Source of the DNA: a virus
Lineage: Duplodnaviria; Caudoviricetes
Direction: 5' to 3' (one strand)
IMG/VR virus record: IMGVR_UViG_3300032167_000083
Coordinates: 1-64,000 of that record
Length of the DNA stretch: 64,000 bases
Shown: piece by piece, positions 4,299 through 37,200 of the stretch
How positions within the stretch are numbered: position 1 is the stretch's first letter
Layout of the letters: each line of letters starts with the position of its first letter
Program-made: the position numbers and the translations under genes
Notes under the pieces: generated by a model
The model's input: only the letters and a program-made list of their open reading frames with translations
Told to the model about the DNA's origin: nothing
The model's database searches: none

Positions 4299-5042
4299 AT
4301 GAAACAAAAAGAAAAACAAGGAATGAACAATTACATAGGACAATATAGAGTGAGAACCCCTATTGGTCATAATGGAGAATTTACAGATAATTTTGATGAT
4401 ACATATATTAAAGGTAGAAAAGGTATTGAATTATATAGGTATTCTGATACATTATTAGCAATTTATATTCCGAATAAAACTATTACTCGTAATGTATATA
4501 ATCAATTAAAACAATATTTTACTTCTGAAACTATAGAACAATTAGAAGCAGATATTAGTAACAATAATATGGGCAATGAGTACATATTATACTTTGAAGA
4601 AAAATATTTCCAGGACCCTACAACAAATAGATTATTTAAAGAAACATTAAATCTTGAAACTCAGGGATCAAAAATCCCCCCTCGTAGTATAAAAAATCTC
4701 CCCAGAGATAAACAAAAATATATTCCTCAAAATGAAGATGATTATATTAATTTAAAAGATTCTATAAGTTCTATAGTTTCAGGTTTTGTATTTGATCATC
4801 AAATCAAACATAATCCAAAGTATTATATAAAAATTTATCAATACATAATGCAAGAATTAAATATAAAAAATGTTAGTCCTGCAAAAACTTTAATCTATTT
4901 AGATGAAAATAAATTGCTTGAAAATGCTATAAAAATAGTAGATAAATTAAGTGAAAATACTACAGAAATTAATAAAATATTATCAGAAAATTCAGAAAAT
5001 AAAGTTGTTGATTTTAGTGATGTGATTACTGGAGAGAGTTAA
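4299..5042 (+). CDS. hypothetical protein
   Basis: 247-aa ORF followed by terminator. Confidence 0.75.
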   Translation: MKQKEKQGMNNYIGQYRVRTPIGHNGEFTDNFDDTYIKGRKGIELYRYSDTLLAIYIPNKTITRNVYNQLKQYFTSETIEQLEADISNNNMGNEYILYFEEKYFQDPTTNRLFKETLNLETQGSKIPPRSIKNLPRDKQKYIPQNEDDYINLKDSISSIVSGFVFDHQIKHNPKYYIKIYQYIMQELNIKNVSPAKTLIYLDENKLLENAIKIVDKLSENTTEINKILSENSENKVVDFSDVITGES

Positions 5043-27604: not shown

Positions 27605-28391
27605 AACTATTCTCCTTTCGTAAAATATTAGAGTGTTGACCACTCAAGTAAAGCTTAATAATATTAAACTTGACTTCAATAGTCAACTGCGGAAATCCAG
27701 AAATTTCGCCTATATAGAGTTTTATTTTTAAAAATATTCAGTTTGAAAATATTTTTCTATTTTTTAATCGCCCTATAACATTAAACCCTCTGGGATTTTC
27801 ACAAAACCCATACAGTATTTCACAATAAACCATAGGCTGTCTGGGATAAAATGTTTTGTCTTTCTTTAAAACATTGCCAACATTACCTAACACACCGAGT
27901 CCTTCCTGTTCCACTGTACTTTTTCACCTCCTTATCTTATGTACAAGGTGGATTTCCCACACCAAATAGTTCTTTGAAGGGTGAACATTTCAATTTCCCA
28001 TGTAAACAAATTCAAATAATTAACACGCATAGCCTTCCACAACTATGCATATTAATTGTGTATTTTTGAATTTGCTGAGATATTATATAATATCTCTTTA
28101 AACACATCAGAAATTATTTCTATATTTCTAATATGCTTAAAGAGACACTACATAAGTGCCTCTTGTTTTTTATTAGTCGAACTTTGTAGCCCAACCACTA
28201 TCATCTCTTTCTGGATTGTACATTTAAATCACCTCCATATTCTCATCAGAGTATTTTAACTCTTTTGAGTAATATTCCTCTATTGATATCTTTCCATCAA
28301 GATAATCTTTATCTCTTTGAGAAAGTCCATCATAGTCTTTAAGTGATAAATAACAATATAATGAATATGCATTCATTTTCAATACATCCTT

Positions 28392-30047
28392 TCATATAGT
28401 ATAATATTCTTCATTCCAATCATCATTGCAAGCATAATGACTTCTACCTTGTTTCTCTAAAGAATAAGTACTAACCTTGATTTCTCCACAATGTCCTTCT
28501 GTTACAATCTCTGCAACAAAATCCATATATTCTGGATTATCATTATTATACTTATTTTTTATAAGCATATGGATATATTTATTTTTGTAAGAAGAATCAA
28601 CATAATAATAACGTTTTTTATAACCATTAGTTCTCAGCCAACTTTTGATTACTCCCTTTAATTCTCTCTTCGTTCTTCTTTCTTCTCTTGTTTTCATAAT
28701 ATATTTCCTTTCCCCACCAAGCCAATGGTAAATCATTATTCACTTGCTTGTATCTTTTATTATTTTTTGTTCGCAAATAATGACTGTTTATTATGAAGTA
28801 TAGAGTATTAAATACTCAATCGAGAACAAGATAATGTGTTGCTTGTGATGTTATATCTTACTCTTGCTCTCTGTTCAGTATTTAATGATTAATTACACTC
28901 ATAATACAATACGTTTTTCCATCGGATACTTTTACATAATATGGTCCTGCAAAACTATAAAACACTTTTGCGTTCGGAAAAAGTTTTTTGACAGCCAGTT
29001 TTGGTGTTCTGGCTTCTACTTCAATAGTAGGACCTTTTTCGTTTTCTAATGTTAATGTAAATTTCATATCAATTACTCCTTTCTTGACCCTTATACGTAT
29101 AGGAAGATATGTATTGAAACCCATACAAGAGTTTATTTTTTCTTTAGAGTATTAAATACTCAAAAAGAGAGAGGAACATTTATTCCGCAATTCCGCATTG
29201 TTCCTCTCCTATTTTCAGTATTTAATTATTTAACTGACAATAATTCAAAAAGAGTATTGGCTTTTTCAAAATCATTACCTTTATATATTACTCCTTTATT
29301 TTCAAGCAATACCTCTACTTCTGAAATTTTTCCTTTTCCATCATCAGATATCGAAAAGATATAGATTAATGCTATGTATTCATTTTCGTTTGTTTTACCA
29401 AACCTATCCATACTTGCGGCTTGTACGAACAAAGAATGTTCTTCATCTGTTATATAGTCTATTGGATAGCATTTTCCTTCAATTACTCTGTATTCACCTT
29501 TGTACCCATCTGTCAACATGAACTCTTGATATAAACTACCATCTTCATCAACATGCCATTCAAATGGATCTGGAGAATACATATCTCGCATCATAGCTTC
29601 TTCATTGTCGTCTATACGTTTCTTTGAACGTATTCCGTTGCCACCATTATATAAGCGTTCCCAACGGATATCTCTTCCTGCTGTTTTGCTCTTGCCGTAA
29701 TTGAGGTAATCTTTACCTCTTATGTTTCGAGATTTGTGAAAAATATTTGCTTTACGTGTTCTTCTTCTGGCTTCTTTATTTGGATTAACAAATAATTCAT
29801 TATCCAGAAGGTTATCTTCTTCTTCAAACAGCATCATTATTTCATATGCTTTGAAATCATCATACAAATCTCCGAAAAGACTCGCTTCATCGATGCCACT
29901 TAAATTTGTTTCTAATTCCTCAAGTCTTGAGGTTTTTTCTGTTTCTTTTTTGTTGTTTTCTACAACAAGTTCCTCCACTGCTGCCTCAAATAAAGCTTTA
30001 TCAAAAGCTTCTTCTGCTTTCAGCAATGCTTTTTCTAATGTTGTCAT
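28392..30047 (-). CDS. three hypothetical genes (28392-~28697, 28882-~29067, 29226-30047) separated by structured spacers
   Basis: ORFs with RBSs. Confidence 0.65.
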
Positions 30048-30386
30048 ATTAAATCATTCCTTTCGTTTAACTTATGTACCCATCTCATAAGACTACACCT
30101 ATGACACTGAGCTATGCTCAAAATGTAGTTTTGTAATTATATCAGGTATAGAGTAATTTAATACTCAAGCAAGCACACGATAAAGCTCGTATGCTTAATC
30201 AGTATTAAATTGTAATCAAGAATATCAAGTCGCTTTAGGTAAAAATGAGACAACTCAGCAATATCTGAGGTGGTTGCTCCGTCTTTGCTAAAGATATTCT
30301 CTAAAGGAATATATCCTCTTTAAATCACACAATAAAACTCGTATGATTTAAGGAAGAGGGTTCAAGCTGAACCCATTCCTGTTTTA

Positions 30387-31292
30387 TTATCTTTTTAATA
30401 ACCAATCTGAAATTGATAATACTTTTTTGTTGGTTGATTGACCTGAATTAACAGTTAACCATCTCTGGTATTCTAATTCACCATAATGATTAACAATATA
30501 ATCAACAGCAGCACCTAATGTGCTGAATCTCTCTGCCCAAAGAGTGTTACTGTCACTCTTTTCGAACCAATACAAATCAACTTTATCTGTGTTTGGATAA
30601 CACAATATAACAGCAGGCTCTGTATTTGTCCACCCAAACCCTATCGCTTTAAAACATTTTGAGATATTGTATCTCATCATATTTAAACGATATTCCATTT
30701 CTTGTGCCTTTTCCAAGCTGTTAAATTTTTGTTCTTGAAGTACTGGAGCAAAAGGAACATTAAGTTTGTAACTCTTTTCAATAAGAGCATACATCTCTTC
30801 CTCATTGCCCAAATCATCATAGACAGTTGTTTTACCATCTAATTTAATTTCCTCTGTAATCGTATTAGAAATCTTATTGATGATAACAGGACGATTATCT
30901 GACTTCAATAACTCAGAGAGCTTTTTAGCAGCTTCTTCAGCTTCTTTGATAAGCTCATCTGTTGTCCATTTATGTCCATCAGAGGCATAATTGAATGTCA
31001 TATAATCTCCATAATGAGCATAATCCCATCCAATCCATACTCCATCAGGATGATAATCTAACTTACCATTAAAAGTAAGTCCACCATGTACATCTAATGG
31101 AATCTCATCATAATGAGTATTCTCATATTTAGTACCCTTAACATTGAGGTAAGTACATGGATGTGTTCCAAGATTAAGAATAATCCATTCTACATCATCT
31201 GTAGTTCCTGTAGCTAAAGGTCCTACATATCTGGTTTCTCTGCTGTAGTTCATTTCTACAATCTTGTGTGTTCTGTTCATGTTCTTTTTCAT
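30387..31292 (-). CDS. hypothetical phage protein
   Basis: N-terminal HPCTY...VHGGLTF...WIGWDYAH module common in phages. Confidence 0.7.
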   Translation of the reverse strand: MKKNMNRTHKIVEMNYSRETRYVGPLATGTTDDVEWIILNLGTHPCTYLNVKGTKYENTHYDEIPLDVHGGLTFNGKLDYHPDGVWIGWDYAHYGDYMTFNYASDGHKWTTDELIKEAEEAAKKLSELLKSDNRPVIINKISNTITEEIKLDGKTTVYDDLGNEEEMYALIEKSYKLNVPFAPVLQEQKFNSLEKAQEMEYRLNMMRYNISKCFKAIGFGWTNTEPAVILCYPNTDKVDLYWFEKSDSNTLWAERFSTLGAAVDYIVNHYGELEYQRWLTVNSGQSTNKKVLSISDWLLKR

Positions 31293-31426
31293 AGCTTTAA
31301 CCTTTCCCTCACCTATCCAATGAGTCAACTCTAACCATGCAGCTCTTTGAGCACTTGATAGTTTATAATATATTTACTCACCATCAGAGTCGTTTGCTAT
31401 AAATGTCCGAAATTTGTTGCCAATGA

Positions 31427-31483
31427 TGTCTGTTTCGGCTCATGCCATCATCAGGTCCTGGACTTTTACCAGAACGACAGACA
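31427..31483 (-). ncRNA. type III hammerhead ribozyme
   Basis: UGUCU-GUC^-GUUCUGG/CCAGGAC-CUGAUGA-U-GGC AUGA GCC-GAAA-CAGACA: complete catalytic core and stems I-III. Confidence 0.9.
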
Positions 31484-31511
31484 AGAGGAGTTGTTTCACT
31501 CCTCTTTTTGT

Positions 31512-31679
31512 TTAACTTATCATTGCTATGGCTGATAGTATCCATATTGATGCAAATGATACTCCGACAAAAGAGAGTAATTCAAAAAATATTTTTATAT
31601 TTTCTCTCTTTTCGGCTTTTCTTTTTTCTTGTCTTGCGACAAATTCTTCTCTTGTTGATGGTGTTGTTCTTTTTTTCAT
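31512..31679 (-). CDS. small protein with C-terminal TM helix
   Basis: AAGGAAGGA RBS, basic N-terminus, hydrophobic C-terminus. Confidence 0.6.
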   Translation of the reverse strand: MKKRTTPSTREEFVARQEKRKAEKRENIKIFFELLSFVGVSFASIWILSAIAMIS

Positions 31680-31980
31680 AATTATTCCTTCCTTTCCACA
31701 CATCAGTAAAACCCAGAAAAAGTTCCTATATAGTAAAGATTTATATGAACTTTACACTTCTGAGTTTTACTACTTCTACCCATTTCGCCCCACAGTCTAA
31801 AACTTTTATAGGAGCTTAAGAAAAGCTCAAAAGATTACTAAGAAAGTAATCAATTTACTACTAAAATAAGTAGTTATGTACTTAAGATAAGCACTACTTC
31901 TCTTAACCTATATTACACTAATATAGGATTTAATGAAGGTTTTTCGTTCAAGGGGATAACCTACAACCCCATTTTACCTC

Positions 31981-32352
31981 CTATTGAGGAGCAACTACCA
32001 AGCATCCTAATGATGCATAATAATTGGTATCAACATCAACTTCACCATCACAATAAATTAATGGCTCAATTGTTGTGTATTCATCTTCATATGATGCTAT
32101 TCTTGAACCATAACAACATACTACTTTTAGATGAATATTACTACCAATCATATTTGATAGCTCCTCAAGAGTATATTCCTCATCATCAAGAAGAATATAT
32201 CCATCTTCTGTTCCATGACAAAACATAAGTAAGCCATGAGAAGATGAATTAACTACTGCAAAGTCAGCTTGATCAAGACCAACTCTACAAACGTCATTGA
32301 ATTCTTCTTGATTTATAAAGATATACTCTTTGGTACTTACACTATTAATCAT
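31981..32352 (-). CDS. acidic protein, possible caspase/CHAT-fold peptidase
   Basis: LLMFCHG...G.I.L.D...T.EEL...LKVVCCYG spacing resembles the His-Gly/Cys dyad of CHAT domains. Confidence 0.45.
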   Translation of the reverse strand: MINSVSTKEYIFINQEEFNDVCRVGLDQADFAVVNSSSHGLLMFCHGTEDGYILLDDEEYTLEELSNMIGSNIHLKVVCCYGSRIASYEDEYTTIEPLIYCDGEVDVDTNYYASLGCLVVAPQ

Positions 32353-32539
32353 AGTGAATACCTCCCTTCTGTTGTCATATCCAAAGGTTCCGACTATAGC
32401 GACAACTACTATAACCTTGCTTATATGCTCAAGACATATAAGACTAAAGGAAATCTCTTTCCTTTTACTAAACTCTATATAAAATTAACTATATAAAGTT
32501 TAATAAAAGAAAAGAGACTCATTTCTGAGCCTCATTCCT

Positions 32540-32752
32540 TTAATAAATTTCATTCCTGATAATATCATCAGGAGTGTATTTTTTTGTAAGGAGAGCAAAT
32601 TTTATAACGAATATGAAATCTGGCTCTGTTTTCCCATTTTCATAGCTCGACAAAGTCGCTCTTGTGATACCTAAAGCATCGGCAAGTTCTTGTTGAGTAA
32701 AACCAATTTTCTTTCGGGCATTTTTTATTCCGTTTGCAATATCGTATGCCAT
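32540..32752 (-). CDS. XRE/Cro-C1 family HTH regulator
   Basis: IKNARKKIGFTQQELADALGITRATLSSYENGKTEPD. Confidence 0.9.
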   Translation of the reverse strand: MAYDIANGIKNARKKIGFTQQELADALGITRATLSSYENGKTEPDFIFVIKFALLTKKYTPDDIIRNEIY

Positions 32753-32859
32753 ATTTTTTCCTCCTATAAGTATTTTTACCTGTAAAGCTTGTTTGTGTAT
32801 CACCAATTACGATTAACTAACCCGATACACTTAGATTAGTTAAAAGTTGAACATCAATT

Positions 32860-33297
32860 TTACTCGTTAATATCTTTGATACTTACAAGCTTAAGTTCCT
32901 GTTCTAATACAGGCTTTTCGACATCTTCTATAGAAACAAGATTTTGTTCTAATACAGGCTTTTCAACATCTTCTATAGATTTTAAAACTTCTTTTGGATT
33001 TCCTGAATTAACAGTATAATCCTCTTTGTTAAGCTTTAATTCATTAAAAGATACTTTTATTATAGTATCTTCTTTGTATAGATTACTATCATAAGCAAAG
33101 AAATCATAGTATTCTCCATTTGGATGAAGTACTGTAACTACTTTATCAGCTTCTTGAATAACTCTACAATTTCTAACTGTATGAGCTTTACTATAGGCTG
33201 TATAACCCAATGTCATTACTACTACTAACCCTGCAACCAATAAACCTTTTTTCATAACTTTCTCCTCAGCTCTTGATACTATCTCCACTGACCTCAT
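32860..33297 (-). CDS. membrane-anchored protein with duplicated SIEDVEKPVLEQ repeat
   Basis: N-terminal TM/signal; paralog of 27269 gene; near-perfect internal tandem repeat. Confidence 0.7.
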   Translation of the reverse strand: MRSVEIVSRAEEKVMKKGLLVAGLVVVMTLGYTAYSKAHTVRNCRVIQEADKVVTVLHPNGEYYDFFAYDSNLYKEDTIIKVSFNELKLNKEDYTVNSGNPKEVLKSIEDVEKPVLEQNLVSIEDVEKPVLEQELKLVSIKDINE

Positions 33298-33321
33298 CTT
33301 GAGGATTTAAATATTTTTATT

Positions 33322-33390
33322 TTTCTCCACTCTGCATTTACAAGGGCTTGTGACCTTCTATACTCGTCAATATAGGCTGCATTAGAGAAA
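33322..33390 (-). ncRNA. twister ribozyme (P1 type)
   Basis: UUUCUC U^AA UGCA GC-[P3 CUAUA/UAUAG]-AAG GUCACAAGCC CUU-GUAAA-UGCA GAGUG GAGAAA fits the twister consensus and both pseudoknots. Confidence 0.88.
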
Positions 33391-33410
33391 GGGAGTTTTA
33401 ACTCCCTTTT

Positions 33411-33695
33411 TTATTCGAAAGATACACTTTCAAGGAATTTTTTATATTCCTCTTCTTGTATTTTTTCCAGTTCTTCTTTTATGTTCGGTTCTTCTTCGAA
33501 CATTTCATAGGTTATGTCTTTTGCCCAATTTTCAAGAACTTTCATTCTTGTTTCTTCGTCAGCTTTTAAAAAAGCTTCGAATATAAAATTAAACAACTCG
33601 GTATCCATTTCGAATACTTGATATTGTTCTGGGCTTTCTACAACTATGTTAGTTGTATTTTTAATCTTGTTGTCTGTGATTGTAAATTCTTTCAT
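33411..33695 (-). CDS. acidic hypothetical protein, first gene of the minus-strand block
   Basis: ATG after AAAGGA RBS. Confidence 0.7.
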   Translation of the reverse strand: MKEFTITDNKIKNTTNIVVESPEQYQVFEMDTELFNFIFEAFLKADEETRMKVLENWAKDITYEMFEEEPNIKEELEKIQEEEYKKFLESVSFE

Positions 33696-34289
33696 GATTT
33701 TTCCTTTCTTGCCTTTTCGGGCTGACAACTTTCACATTTAATTAGGATAAGATGTCAAGCTTACCTACCTCATCTTTTGTGAGGATTTAATTAATGAATA
33801 CGTTAAAGTCGTTTCATTTATTCGACTTTACATATTCATTCATTTTTTTTATACATATCATATAATATCCAGTCTATTTCCAAAACTGAAAATTCTGAAA
33901 AAAATTTTTTTACCCACCAGAAACCCTACCTTTTCTCCCACTCCACAATTTTAAACAAAAAAAGAGAGATTGCAAAACACAACCCCTCCAAAAAGAAACA
34001 TAGACAAATCATCTTTCAAACCTCTCTCACATTCAAATCTTAATCTTTTTCAAACAATCCAACACCAAATCCTCACCAACTCCATCTATCCATCAACTTA
34101 TATTATCAACTCCAAAAAATCGATTCTACGTCTCTATCATTCAAAAAACTCTAATAAACAAAAATGAGATGAATAAATCATCTCAAAAAAAAAGAGAGAT
34201 TACCAAAGTAACCTCTCTTAATAAATTTATTTATATAATTTACGAATGAACTTACATTATTCACTTCGTTCACAGATGAACTCACATTA

Positions 34290-37200
34290 TCAATCTAAAG
34301 CTTCTAATGATAATAAAGGAATTATATTATTATCTTTACCATTAAGTTCTTTTTTCATATTTTCAACAAACACATTATAAGCCTTCACAACATCAACAAT
34401 TTTAGTAATTATTATTCCATCTTCATTTTTAACACATTTAAGGTAAGGAATAGAAGACTCATCTAAGCAAAAAGCATCATCAATCATATCCTTAAATCTA
34501 CATAAAGATAAGACATCATATCCATATGCTAATAACTCTGGGTTAATATTTAAATCCCATTTTGCATTAGGATGTTGTAAAATTTTATCTACTGTTATAA
34601 TAAATAATTCAGCAGATTCAAAATAGAATTCATTAAAATTTTCAGGATATTTTTTATATATTGGACCTCCAAATACATCATTTTTATCGTTAATATAACA
34701 ACTATAAATTACAAGTTTAACATCATTGTAATCATATTCATTTTTTCCAACTTTTAAAATACATTTCATAATAATCGTCTCCTCAAAAAATTTCAATTTT
34801 CACAACTCGACAAAAAATACAAACCTTCTATATCATCTTTCTGTTCTTTTTTAACTTCAAATTCTTTAATACATGCATCAATAGAATCAATCAATTCAGG
34901 GTCAATATCATCAAACAGATATAATTTAGCTCTATGTCCTCTAATTATACTATTTTCTGGAGCTTTTATTGTTATAACATTATTTTCCATTTTTTTCCAC
35001 CTGAGTGTTTTTTGATGATTCAATAGTTCCAGTAGAAATTTCAACAACTCCAAAATTTATAAAATTACGAGGATCGAATTCACGTTCATAATGATAAGAA
35101 ATAGCATCAACAGAATAAACATTTTTATCAAATGAATATAATTTTTCATTTATTAATCCTTCATTTGCTTGAATACCTGAAATGTTATCAACTGTTTGAA
35201 TCAATTTAACACGATTACCATCATCTATAATTCCTGCAAATACCTGAATCTGGTCATAATAAGTATAGTAAGGTATTATTATTTTAAAATGCTGTTTGAA
35301 ACTCATAGGGGATGCATGAAGATTATTAGTTACGCTTTTTGCCATAATAAAAGGTAAATCTTTAACAAGACCTTGGGAATCATGCAAAATATATAAATGA
35401 TCAATCGAATATTTAAAATCATCTAAACTTATAGTATCAAAAGTTTCTTTTTTATTTTTATTACAATTGCAAGACATAATTTAATTCCTTCTTTCTTAAT
35501 TTTACTATACCCTATAAAGTATAGTTTATTTTTTATTTTCTCCTATTATACCTTATAGGGTATAATTTTTAAAATTTATAATATTCGCCTTCCACATATG
35601 TTAATTCATTTTGTTCAATAAATTCTTCAACTTTATCAGTATCAACATAAATTATCAATTTTTCCATTGGTATACTTTTATCTTCATTTTCATCATTTAA
35701 AATGATATTTTCGGTATTGCAACGAAACATATCTAAAATTTTTTCTGATTCATTTTCTAATTGAGTTTCTTGTTTTTCTTTCTCCAAAACTCTATCTAAT
35801 TCTTCTCTAAGTTCTTCTCTATATCTTTCAGAAAAATAGAGTTTCAATCCTTCAATAGAAGCCTTTTTACCTTTTTCTTTCACACGTTGAGCAAGTGTTT
35901 TAATAGTATCTCCATCATATTGAAGAGTCCACTCAGAGAATTTTTTAAGAGCATCATCTACATTGAATTCAATCTTTTTTCTTTTACAATAGTTATAATA
36001 TCGAATCAATGTTTTTAAATGATATCCAAGCATTTCTTCTTCATGAGAATCAGGATAAGATTTAGAAGAAAGGTGAATAACATGTTTATTTTCTGCGTTA
36101 TTATGATAAGCCATTCCAATAATATGAGCATAATAAGGAACAATATCTGATTCTTTTTCAAAATGAAGAAGTTTTTTATTATATGTACCATCAGGTTGTT
36201 TTTCATATATGTAAACTTTTGAATTTTTTATTAAATTATCAAGACCATCATGAATTTCTATATTATCAAACAGGTCACACTTGCCAGAAAAACGACTTAT
36301 GATAATCACCTTCTTTCTTTAAAATCATCAATTAAAACTCTTTCAAAACTTCTTTTTCTTCATCTGATTTTTGTTTTAATTCTTTAATAATTTCATCCCC
36401 ATCATTATCAAAATCTTTAATATCATGTGCTTGTAAAATTTCTGCATCAACTGTATTATTAACTATTATGATAGGTTTTTTATAACTTCTTTTATTTTTC
36501 TTTTTATTTTTAGAATTATTAGATTTTGATGTTTTAGTATCTGATGAATCAGTTGAAGTATGTTTTCTTTTTGCATCAAGTTCAACAAATTTTTCATAAA
36601 CTTGAGAAACAGACATATTTGCAAATTGTGCGATATTTGTTAGACCAATATTATTAATATATTTCAATTCTCCTCTAATGATAAACATATCGTTATATTT
36701 ATCTTCATTATACCTAATAGCCATATAAAAGTTACAATATTCATCTACCAATAAATTAATTCCTTCATTCCAAAGTTTGCTTTTTAGAAAATAGAAGAAA
36801 TAGTATTGATTATCATAACCTAAATCATAATTTGTAACATTTTTATTTTCTTTCATATATAATAAATGATAAGGATAACAAGTAATCAATCCACCATCAG
36901 AAAAAACATTACTCTTTATCCAATTAAAAGTTTGTTCTTTAGCCCCATCATACCATAATTCATTAAATTTTTCTTCATAGATTTTATATAAATCTTTTTT
37001 TGTCATTAATTCATCTCTAAGCATTTTAATACCTCTTTCTATTTTTTAATTATGTTATTTACTCATCATCACTAATCAATGCTCTAAATTTAGTAATAAT
37101 TTTTGAATTTTTACCTTGTTGTTCTTTTAAATGATTTTCAGTTGCTTCTAATTTAGTTTTAGCTTCTTCAATTTCAAAAATAGTTTTATCAATTTCTTCA

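Follow-up and report, generated by a model that had tools for sequence, protein, structure and literature searches.

A hairpin set directly against a type-P1 twister ribozyme in a gut phage, in a layout general among phage twisters

Between two small genes of a large phage lies a genuine, active-looking type-P1 twister ribozyme, its cleavage predicted from sequence, with a stable hairpin set directly against its 5' edge; the same hairpin-then-twister layout is general among phage P1 twisters. We consider it probable that the twister cuts a short phage transcript between two cistrons, and that the cut leaves the upstream message capped by the hairpin. More tentatively, as a possibility worth taking seriously, we propose that the hairpin is an integral half of a transferable “cut-and-cap” cassette, one that would let the polymerase carry on and still provide the upstream cistron with a 3' end that is terminator-like and exonuclease-proof, and that may do so across ribozyme classes. 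The DNA analysed, called the window here, comprises 64,000 nucleotides (positions 1 to 64,000 of the IMG/VR record IMGVR_UViG_3300032167_000083).

The ribozyme occupies positions 33324-33388 of the minus strand and matches the Rfam type-P1 twister model (RF03160) over its full length (model positions 1-68 of 68) with 67.0 bits, at an E-value of 2.4e-15 in a search of 301 nt and of 5e-13 in the whole 64-kb window. This is far beyond chance, and the original prediction, which had named a twister here and proposed a covariance-model search as the check, is borne out. Please note that a scan of the whole window at Rfam gathering thresholds returns 0 matches, because the twister scores 67.0 bits and the cut-off of RF03160 is 67.2; the shortfall of 0.2 bits arises mainly because P3 and P4 are short and AU-rich.

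Read along the minus strand after the hairpin, the order of parts is UCUC U^AA UGCA GCC, an AU-rich hairpin, AAG-GUCACAAGCC-CUU, and GUAAA UGCA GAGUG GAGA. By both sequence and minimum free energy (MFE) fold, stem P1 pairs UCUC (33388-33385) with GAGA (33327-33324), P2 pairs UGCA (33381-33378) with UGCA (33336-33333), P3 is a short AU-rich hairpin (33375-33358), and P4 is AAG/CUU around the loop GUCACAAGCC (33357-33342). The sequence further gives the GCC after P2 (33377-33375), GAGUG (33332-33328), and the T1 pseudoknot, in which CAC of the P4 loop (33352-33350) faces GUG (33330-33328) in the strand before the 3' side of P1, with A33351-U33329 as the middle pair. In solved twister structures, the partners of the T2 pseudoknot are the GC of the GCC after P2 and the GC of the loop AAGCC; both are present and complementary here, and both are invariant in the set of phage twisters described below, which leaves no covariation at T2 to count. 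Alignment to the Rfam consensus UAA puts the predicted scissile bond between U33384 and A33383. The conserved core at 33384-33328 is complete (U-A at the cut, AA, GCC after P2, the loop GUCNCAAGCC, UAAA, and GAGNG), and every conserved twister position agrees with the Rfam consensus, with none mutated. The MFE fold of 33322-33412 reproduces P1, P2, P3, P4, and the upstream hairpin, with helices P1, P2, and P4 in place and P1 at the open end. This fold has a z-score of -4.15, and its stability is equalled by 0 of 200 shuffles. Sequence, Rfam alignment, and MFE fold therefore agree with the helices and cleavage site as they were first read.

The hairpin, AAGGGAGU-UAAA-ACUCCCUU in the MFE fold (33408-33389, minus strand), begins 2 nt past the stop codon of the upstream gene (TAA, 33413-33411) and ends 0 nt before P1, so that the twister does, as the original prediction had it, directly follow a hairpin after a gene. 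The further description of this hairpin as terminator-like holds for its shape only: the terminator scan does not flag 33408-33389 on the minus strand, and what follows the GC core is UUUCUCU, that is, 5 U in 7 in an AT-rich phage. In a four-way alignment with relatives, the stem carries compensatory changes (GGGAG/CUCCC, GGCGG/CCGCC, and CAGGGAG/CUCCCUG), and the sequences of P1 and the core are unchanged while the hairpin stem varies.

How general this layout is can be judged from a degenerate twister core pattern, with which a scan of IMG/VR viral contigs found at least 111 stretches. Among the matches listed, 114 pattern matches (the window plus the loci) were thinned to 106 with a P1-type 5' half, 105 with at least 80 nt upstream, 91 unique sequences, and finally 73 clusters by upstream sequence. 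The thinning removed, again among the matches listed, 8 without a recognisable 5' half, 1 too near the end of its contig, 14 duplicates, and 18 cluster mates. One exact-match pattern and a crude upstream k-mer clustering produced the 73 representatives, which are related sequences and not phylogenetically independent. P2 pairing within them is imposed by the search pattern, and the open reading frames (ORFs) used for stop and start distances and for control spacers were called mechanically.

Among the matches listed, the middle T1 pair is Watson-Crick in 73/73 (A-U 60, U-A 6, C-G 5, G-C 2), the three P4 pairs form in 70, 73, and 73 of the 73, and the base before the cut is U in 71/73 and C in 2/73; P4 and P1 covary. 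P1 itself is 3-5 bp in 70 of 105 listed matches. Upstream, the 50 nt leading up to the cut have a hairpin of -6 kcal/mol or better as their final structure in 64 of the 73 listed representatives, leaving 9/73 without one; in 60 of these 64, the distance from hairpin to cut is 0-7 nt. When P1 was left out of the fold (45 nt before P1, for the 60 listed representatives with a P1 of at least 3 bp), 45 hairpins were obtained, of which 41 end 0-2 nt before P1 and 28 at 0. As controls, we took 50-nt segments directly behind the stop codons of other co-directional ORFs from the same loci (n=149). An MFE of -10 kcal/mol or lower was reached by the 50 nt upstream of 58/73 twisters among the matches listed versus 38/149 of these other intercistronic spacers (Mann-Whitney p 4e-15, on related sequences), and the fold is weaker than -10 kcal/mol in the remaining 15/73. 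Few T follow these hairpins: among the matches listed, the next 8 nt hold 3 or fewer in 53/64 and 5 or more in only 4/64, and most are therefore not canonical intrinsic terminators. The canonical terminators of the window phage have T-runs of 5-9. The intercistronic setting recurs as well. Among the matches listed, 54/73 have a same-strand stop codon at most 100 nt upstream (median 30 nt; 27 nt in the window), and 36/73 have a Shine-Dalgarno sequence with a start codon at most 100 nt downstream (~33 nt in the window).

Hairpin and twister also appear to travel together. When the 7 kb surrounding the twister were compared by blastn with 50,697 phage records, a single GenBank phage matched, and only over 33316-33414, at 78%. 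In the metagenome comparison, which covered contigs of four DNA runs, unrelated contigs match only 33325-33412 or 33324-33438 and then diverge. The part common to the relatives of the cassette is only the hairpin plus the twister. With tblastn, seven flanking proteins, compared with 117 other loci (111 twister-pattern loci among the matches listed, five hammerhead-hit loci, and the MT835475 locus), gave no homologues save one generic HTH match, and the ORF upstream of the twister gave none in the same 117. From these alignments, the hairpin-plus-twister cassette would seem to be a unit that moves.

The source is a large phage of animal gut metagenomes. Its IMG/VR virus record is linear, 102,205 bases long, and by estimate ~66% complete, with a GC content of ~26%; near-identical DNA occurs in animal faeces and bovine gut metagenomes, every one a DNA run, and a search for 30300-34300 gave no RNA run. 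One half, on the plus strand, holds terminase, portal, and exonuclease genes; on the minus strand, a run of small genes extends from ~40.9 to 6.0 kb. Consensus promoter-like sites lie near 41.0 kb, which places the twister ~7.6 kb into the minus-strand run; the original prediction had placed this twister and a neighbouring hammerhead at the first genes of a 28-kb block, and a run that starts at ~40.9 kb does not fit this. Nor does the picture of a single block punctuated by ribozymes fare well. The twister is the sole one that an Rfam covariance-model scan finds in the 102-kb record, the Rfam scan gave no other ribozyme family at E≤5 in 5.5-27.5 kb or 34.4-41.5 kb, and the unity of the block is weakened by canonical terminators that separate twister and hammerhead. 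Both ribozymes lie in a GC-richer island at ~28000-34000 (0.31-0.34 versus 0.23-0.27 around it) with unusually long intergenic spacers. Part of this island looks like an exchangeable module, to judge from a 10-kb contig of run X8 that aligns to 30646-32792 (100 differences) and is unlike the window on either side of this segment.

Locally, the twister sits inside a 113-nt spacer between two co-directional small genes, for neither of which a Pfam or PHROG family was found. The upstream ORF (33411-33728, minus strand; 105 aa from TTG) has an in-frame ATG at 33695, preceded by the Shine-Dalgarno-like tract AAAGGAAA, and is the first gene after a terminator cluster. The downstream gene (32860-33255, minus strand; 131 aa from ATG 33255) has the Shine-Dalgarno sequence GAGGAG at 33267-33262; in its product, the N-terminus is hydrophobic and a SIEDVEKPVLEQ motif is repeated. 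Among the flanking genes, Pfam and PHROGs put a name only to one PHROG of unknown function and to an HTH_3 (XRE-type) regulator (32540-32806, minus strand; PF01381, E 1.9e-15), whose gene is located between twister and hammerhead, with a canonical terminator after it. A small hairpin and direct repeat, TAAATCCTCA-AGATGAGGT (33291-33309, minus strand), is found in the downstream gene's 5' leader, and a second copy of it lies at 33767-33789 on the same strand; the spacing from TAAATCCTCA to AGATGAGGT is 0 or 4 nt, and a 10-mer of the repeat has 2 exact copies in the window. Both copies can fold into a 5-bp hairpin, and each precedes a gene start (33255 and ~33695). Judging by sequence and position, the repeat could serve the nearby HTH protein as an operator, or it could act as a leader stem-loop.

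The terminator scan reports five minus-strand sites with T-rich tails (34219-34192, 34185-34165, 33989-33963, 32533-32514, and 30374-30358), three of which have 6-9 T. The first three form a cluster of canonical terminators (33963-34219, T-runs 5 to 9) upstream of the transcription unit of the twister, within a 560-nt ORF-free gap (33729-34289, minus strand) that also holds a G/T-rich tract between the terminators. An L20-leader-like Rfam match at 34182-34272 is weak (23.9 bits, E 0.25) and probably noise. After the HTH gene, between twister and hammerhead, lies the canonical terminator at 32514-32533 (8-bp stem, tail UUUUCUUUUA); just past it, a long hairpin (32447-32524, minus strand) gives weak microRNA-precursor-like matches (27 bits, E 0.06). 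With terminators between and around them, the two ribozymes are probably in different short transcription units; there would probably be two such units, in each of which a single ribozyme follows the first small gene.

The original prediction had set the twister 1.9 kb from a hammerhead on the same strand and in the same layout. The layout stands, and the identity of the second ribozyme is only probable, given a score of 20.6 bits for RF00008 with a gathering cut-off of 48.5. This probable type III hammerhead lies at 31427-31483 of the minus strand, with a predicted cut after C31476, 1,908 nt downstream of the twister cut. In its favour, it has the expected order of parts (stem III, GUC, the stem I hairpin, CUGAUGA, an extra U, a 3-bp stem II, and GAAAC) and a complete CUGAUGA...GAAA...GUH core, in which the one extra U stands between CUGAUGA and stem II; moreover, its MFE fold is a three-way junction of stems III, I, and II with stem III open (z -5.06), and otherwise unrelated metagenome contigs match only 31430-31473 of the region. 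Its E-value is 0.14 for a search of 801 nt and 0.004 for one of the 102-kb record, it is not among the Rfam matches of the whole window at E≤1, and RF00008 at E≤10 also matches 7/14 control genomes. Directly before its stem III, with zero gap, is again a hairpin in the MFE fold, AAGAGGAGU-GAAACA-ACUCCUCUU (31483-31506, minus strand), which follows the stop of a 63-codon gene, is itself followed by UUGUCUGUC, and is not flagged on the minus strand by the terminator scan. Hairpin-then-ribozyme is thus a layout common to twister and hammerhead. In both pre-ribozyme hairpins (33389-33408 and 31483-31506, minus strand), a Shine-Dalgarno-like purine strand (AAGGGAG, AGAGGAG) is paired with an anti-Shine-Dalgarno-like pyrimidine strand (CUCCCUU, CUCCUCU).

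Further hammerheads were sought in several ways. No hammerhead was found upstream of the twister at 34900-35700. In the viral contigs, a strict hammerhead DNA pattern gave 0 stretches and a looser one gave 68, 0 of them with a type III signature; these 68 are chance matches in coding DNA, except for one (L157) that looks like a permuted hammerhead. RF00008 was also run on 50 of the at least 111 twister-pattern loci, hand-picked and favouring long contigs: 5/50 matched at E≤0.001, none above the cut-off, and on reading all five are type I hammerheads. At the locus L105 (record G050, 130 kb, 91% complete), a type I hammerhead comes directly after a stop codon, and a twister lies ~1.9 kb downstream on the same strand (sites ~2540-2660 and 4480-4580); the 3' half of this twister is identical to that of the window twister, and the spacing is the same with the order of the ribozymes opposite. 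The L105 hammerhead has no added hairpin because its own stem III precedes the cut.

The reading we prefer, cutting followed by capping, may be set out as follows. RNA polymerase would pass the hairpin at 33408-33389, which lacks a proper U-tract, and the twister would then fold and cut between U33384 and A33383. Cleavage by ribozymes of the twister class yields an upstream fragment that ends in a 2',3'-cyclic phosphate and a downstream fragment that starts with a 5'-OH. The 3' end of the upstream message would accordingly consist of the stable hairpin plus UCUCU with a 2',3'-cyclic phosphate. Such an end would look like that of a terminated transcript, and it should withstand both 3' exonucleases and tailing; from what is generally known of bacterial mRNA decay, a single-stranded tail of 5 nt would be too short for the usual 3' exonucleases, and a cyclic-phosphate end would be untailable. 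In the downstream message, a 5'-hydroxyl and the folded ribozyme would come first, and the gene's own Shine-Dalgarno sequence and ATG after them. In this way, the two genes could be co-transcribed and yet decay, and possibly be translated, independently. A rule across classes may underlie this, namely that a stable hairpin precedes the scissile bond by at most ~7 nt; the hairpin may be added where the cut is at the 5' edge of the ribozyme (P1 twister, type III hammerhead) and may be built in where the cut follows the ribozyme's own stem, for example in the type I hammerheads L115-L119.

Other explanations have been weighed. If the hairpin were a leaky intrinsic terminator, most transcripts would stop there, and the twister would trim the read-through minority and define a structured downstream 5' end. 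The UUUCUCU that follows the GGGAG/CUCCC core, the UUGUCUGUC after the hammerhead hairpin, and the near coincidence of the predicted termination point with the ribozyme cut are what such a terminator would give; yet the scan flagged neither hairpin on the minus strand while reporting the five T-rich-tailed sites nearby, the 8 nt that follow contain no more than 3 T in 53 of 64 phage twister hairpins among the matches listed, and a Shine-Dalgarno sequence and gene are close downstream, and on balance we rate this explanation as unlikely. The hairpin might instead be a folding aid with no role in stability, insulating a short P1 from the upstream coding sequence and stacking on it. A zero-nt gap between hairpin and P1, as coaxial stacking needs, is found in 28 of 45 listed cases, and P1 is indeed short (3-5 bp in 70 of 105 listed matches), whereas the need for a stem-loop in the expression of upstream cistrons, described for an engineered system (PMC9872166), would be left unexplained. 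As the whole account of the hairpin this seems improbable to us; the folding-aid role and the cap role are compatible and do not exclude each other.

That the twister match is an inactive relic or a chance look-alike is very improbable: a score 0.2 bits below the gathering score is offset by an E-value of 5e-13, by the lack of mutation at any conserved position, by an intact pseudoknot pair, and by the same cassette being kept in other phages. It is hardly credible that the ~1.9-kb RNA between the twister and hammerhead cuts is circularised by a host RtcB-type ligase, for which the only pointers are the end chemistry expected of the two classes (5'-OH; 2',3'-cyclic phosphate) and their same-strand order with the twister first; the canonical terminator 32533-32514 stands between the ribozymes, and the order in the related record G050 is hammerhead, then twister.

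The capping reading also has to be placed beside published work. The description of the twister class is credited to Roth et al. 2014 in the review PMC6765202, which also states that bacterial twisters and hammerheads have gene neighbourhoods in common and lie near phage genes, that a part in processing polycistronic transcripts has been suggested for them, and that their role is largely unknown. The pistol paper repeats the phage association (PMC4604425). Tandem hammerheads in prophage polycistronic RNAs were described by Perreault et al. 2011, with native 2-kb RNAs that cleave in vitro and, for one case, cleavage in E. coli (PMC3088659). RNase-independent mRNA segmentation, which the original prediction had suggested, is thus a hypothesis already published for such ribozymes (PMC6765202, PMC3088659). 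The window contains a real twister in an ordinary place for a twister, and ribozyme-punctuated phage operons are already in print; this instance adds nothing new for the twister class itself. In a full-text search of articles, no paper had an upstream U-tract-less hairpin as a regular partner of natural twisters, and such an account may be in print.

A testable function, protection of the 3' end of the upstream cistron, is suggested by the tight association, widespread among phage twisters, of their 5' edge with a hairpin that lacks a U-tract, and at ~90 nt the hairpin plus twister is a simple assay system. If such protection were confirmed, it would explain two unrelated ribozyme classes in the same genomic slot and provide natural parts for operon engineering.

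Several known systems invite comparison. In the early mRNA of T7, RNase III sites need the host enzyme, which cuts inside a hairpin. The likeness lies in a long phage transcript cut between genes, with an upstream product that keeps a 3' hairpin; the difference is that the window RNA is predicted to cut itself 5 nt past the hairpin and to leave a cyclic phosphate. Against the twisters of RF03160 there is no structural difference, only a score 0.2 bits under the cut-off; the U-A cleavage site, P1, P2, P4, the optional P3, the pseudoknot partners, and the proximity to phage genes are all the same. With the clustered prophage hammerheads (PMC3088659), the window phage shares self-cleaving ribozymes between co-directional small genes of phage origin; it differs in having two classes, each present singly and with its own hairpin, with a terminator between them and cleavage that is predicted. 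The closest parallel is pRAP, an engineered system for ribozyme-assisted polycistronic expression built in the order ORF, stem-loop, twister, RBS, ORF (PMC9872166). The purpose of its stem-loop is to put a hairpin at the end of every released cistron, and without it the upstream cistrons are poorly expressed and only the last cistron well, as its authors report. The order of parts is identical to that in the phage; pRAP is synthetic and works in E. coli with T7 polymerase, whereas the phage version is natural and has its hairpin directly against P1. Synthetic biologists reached the hairpin-plus-twister design independently.
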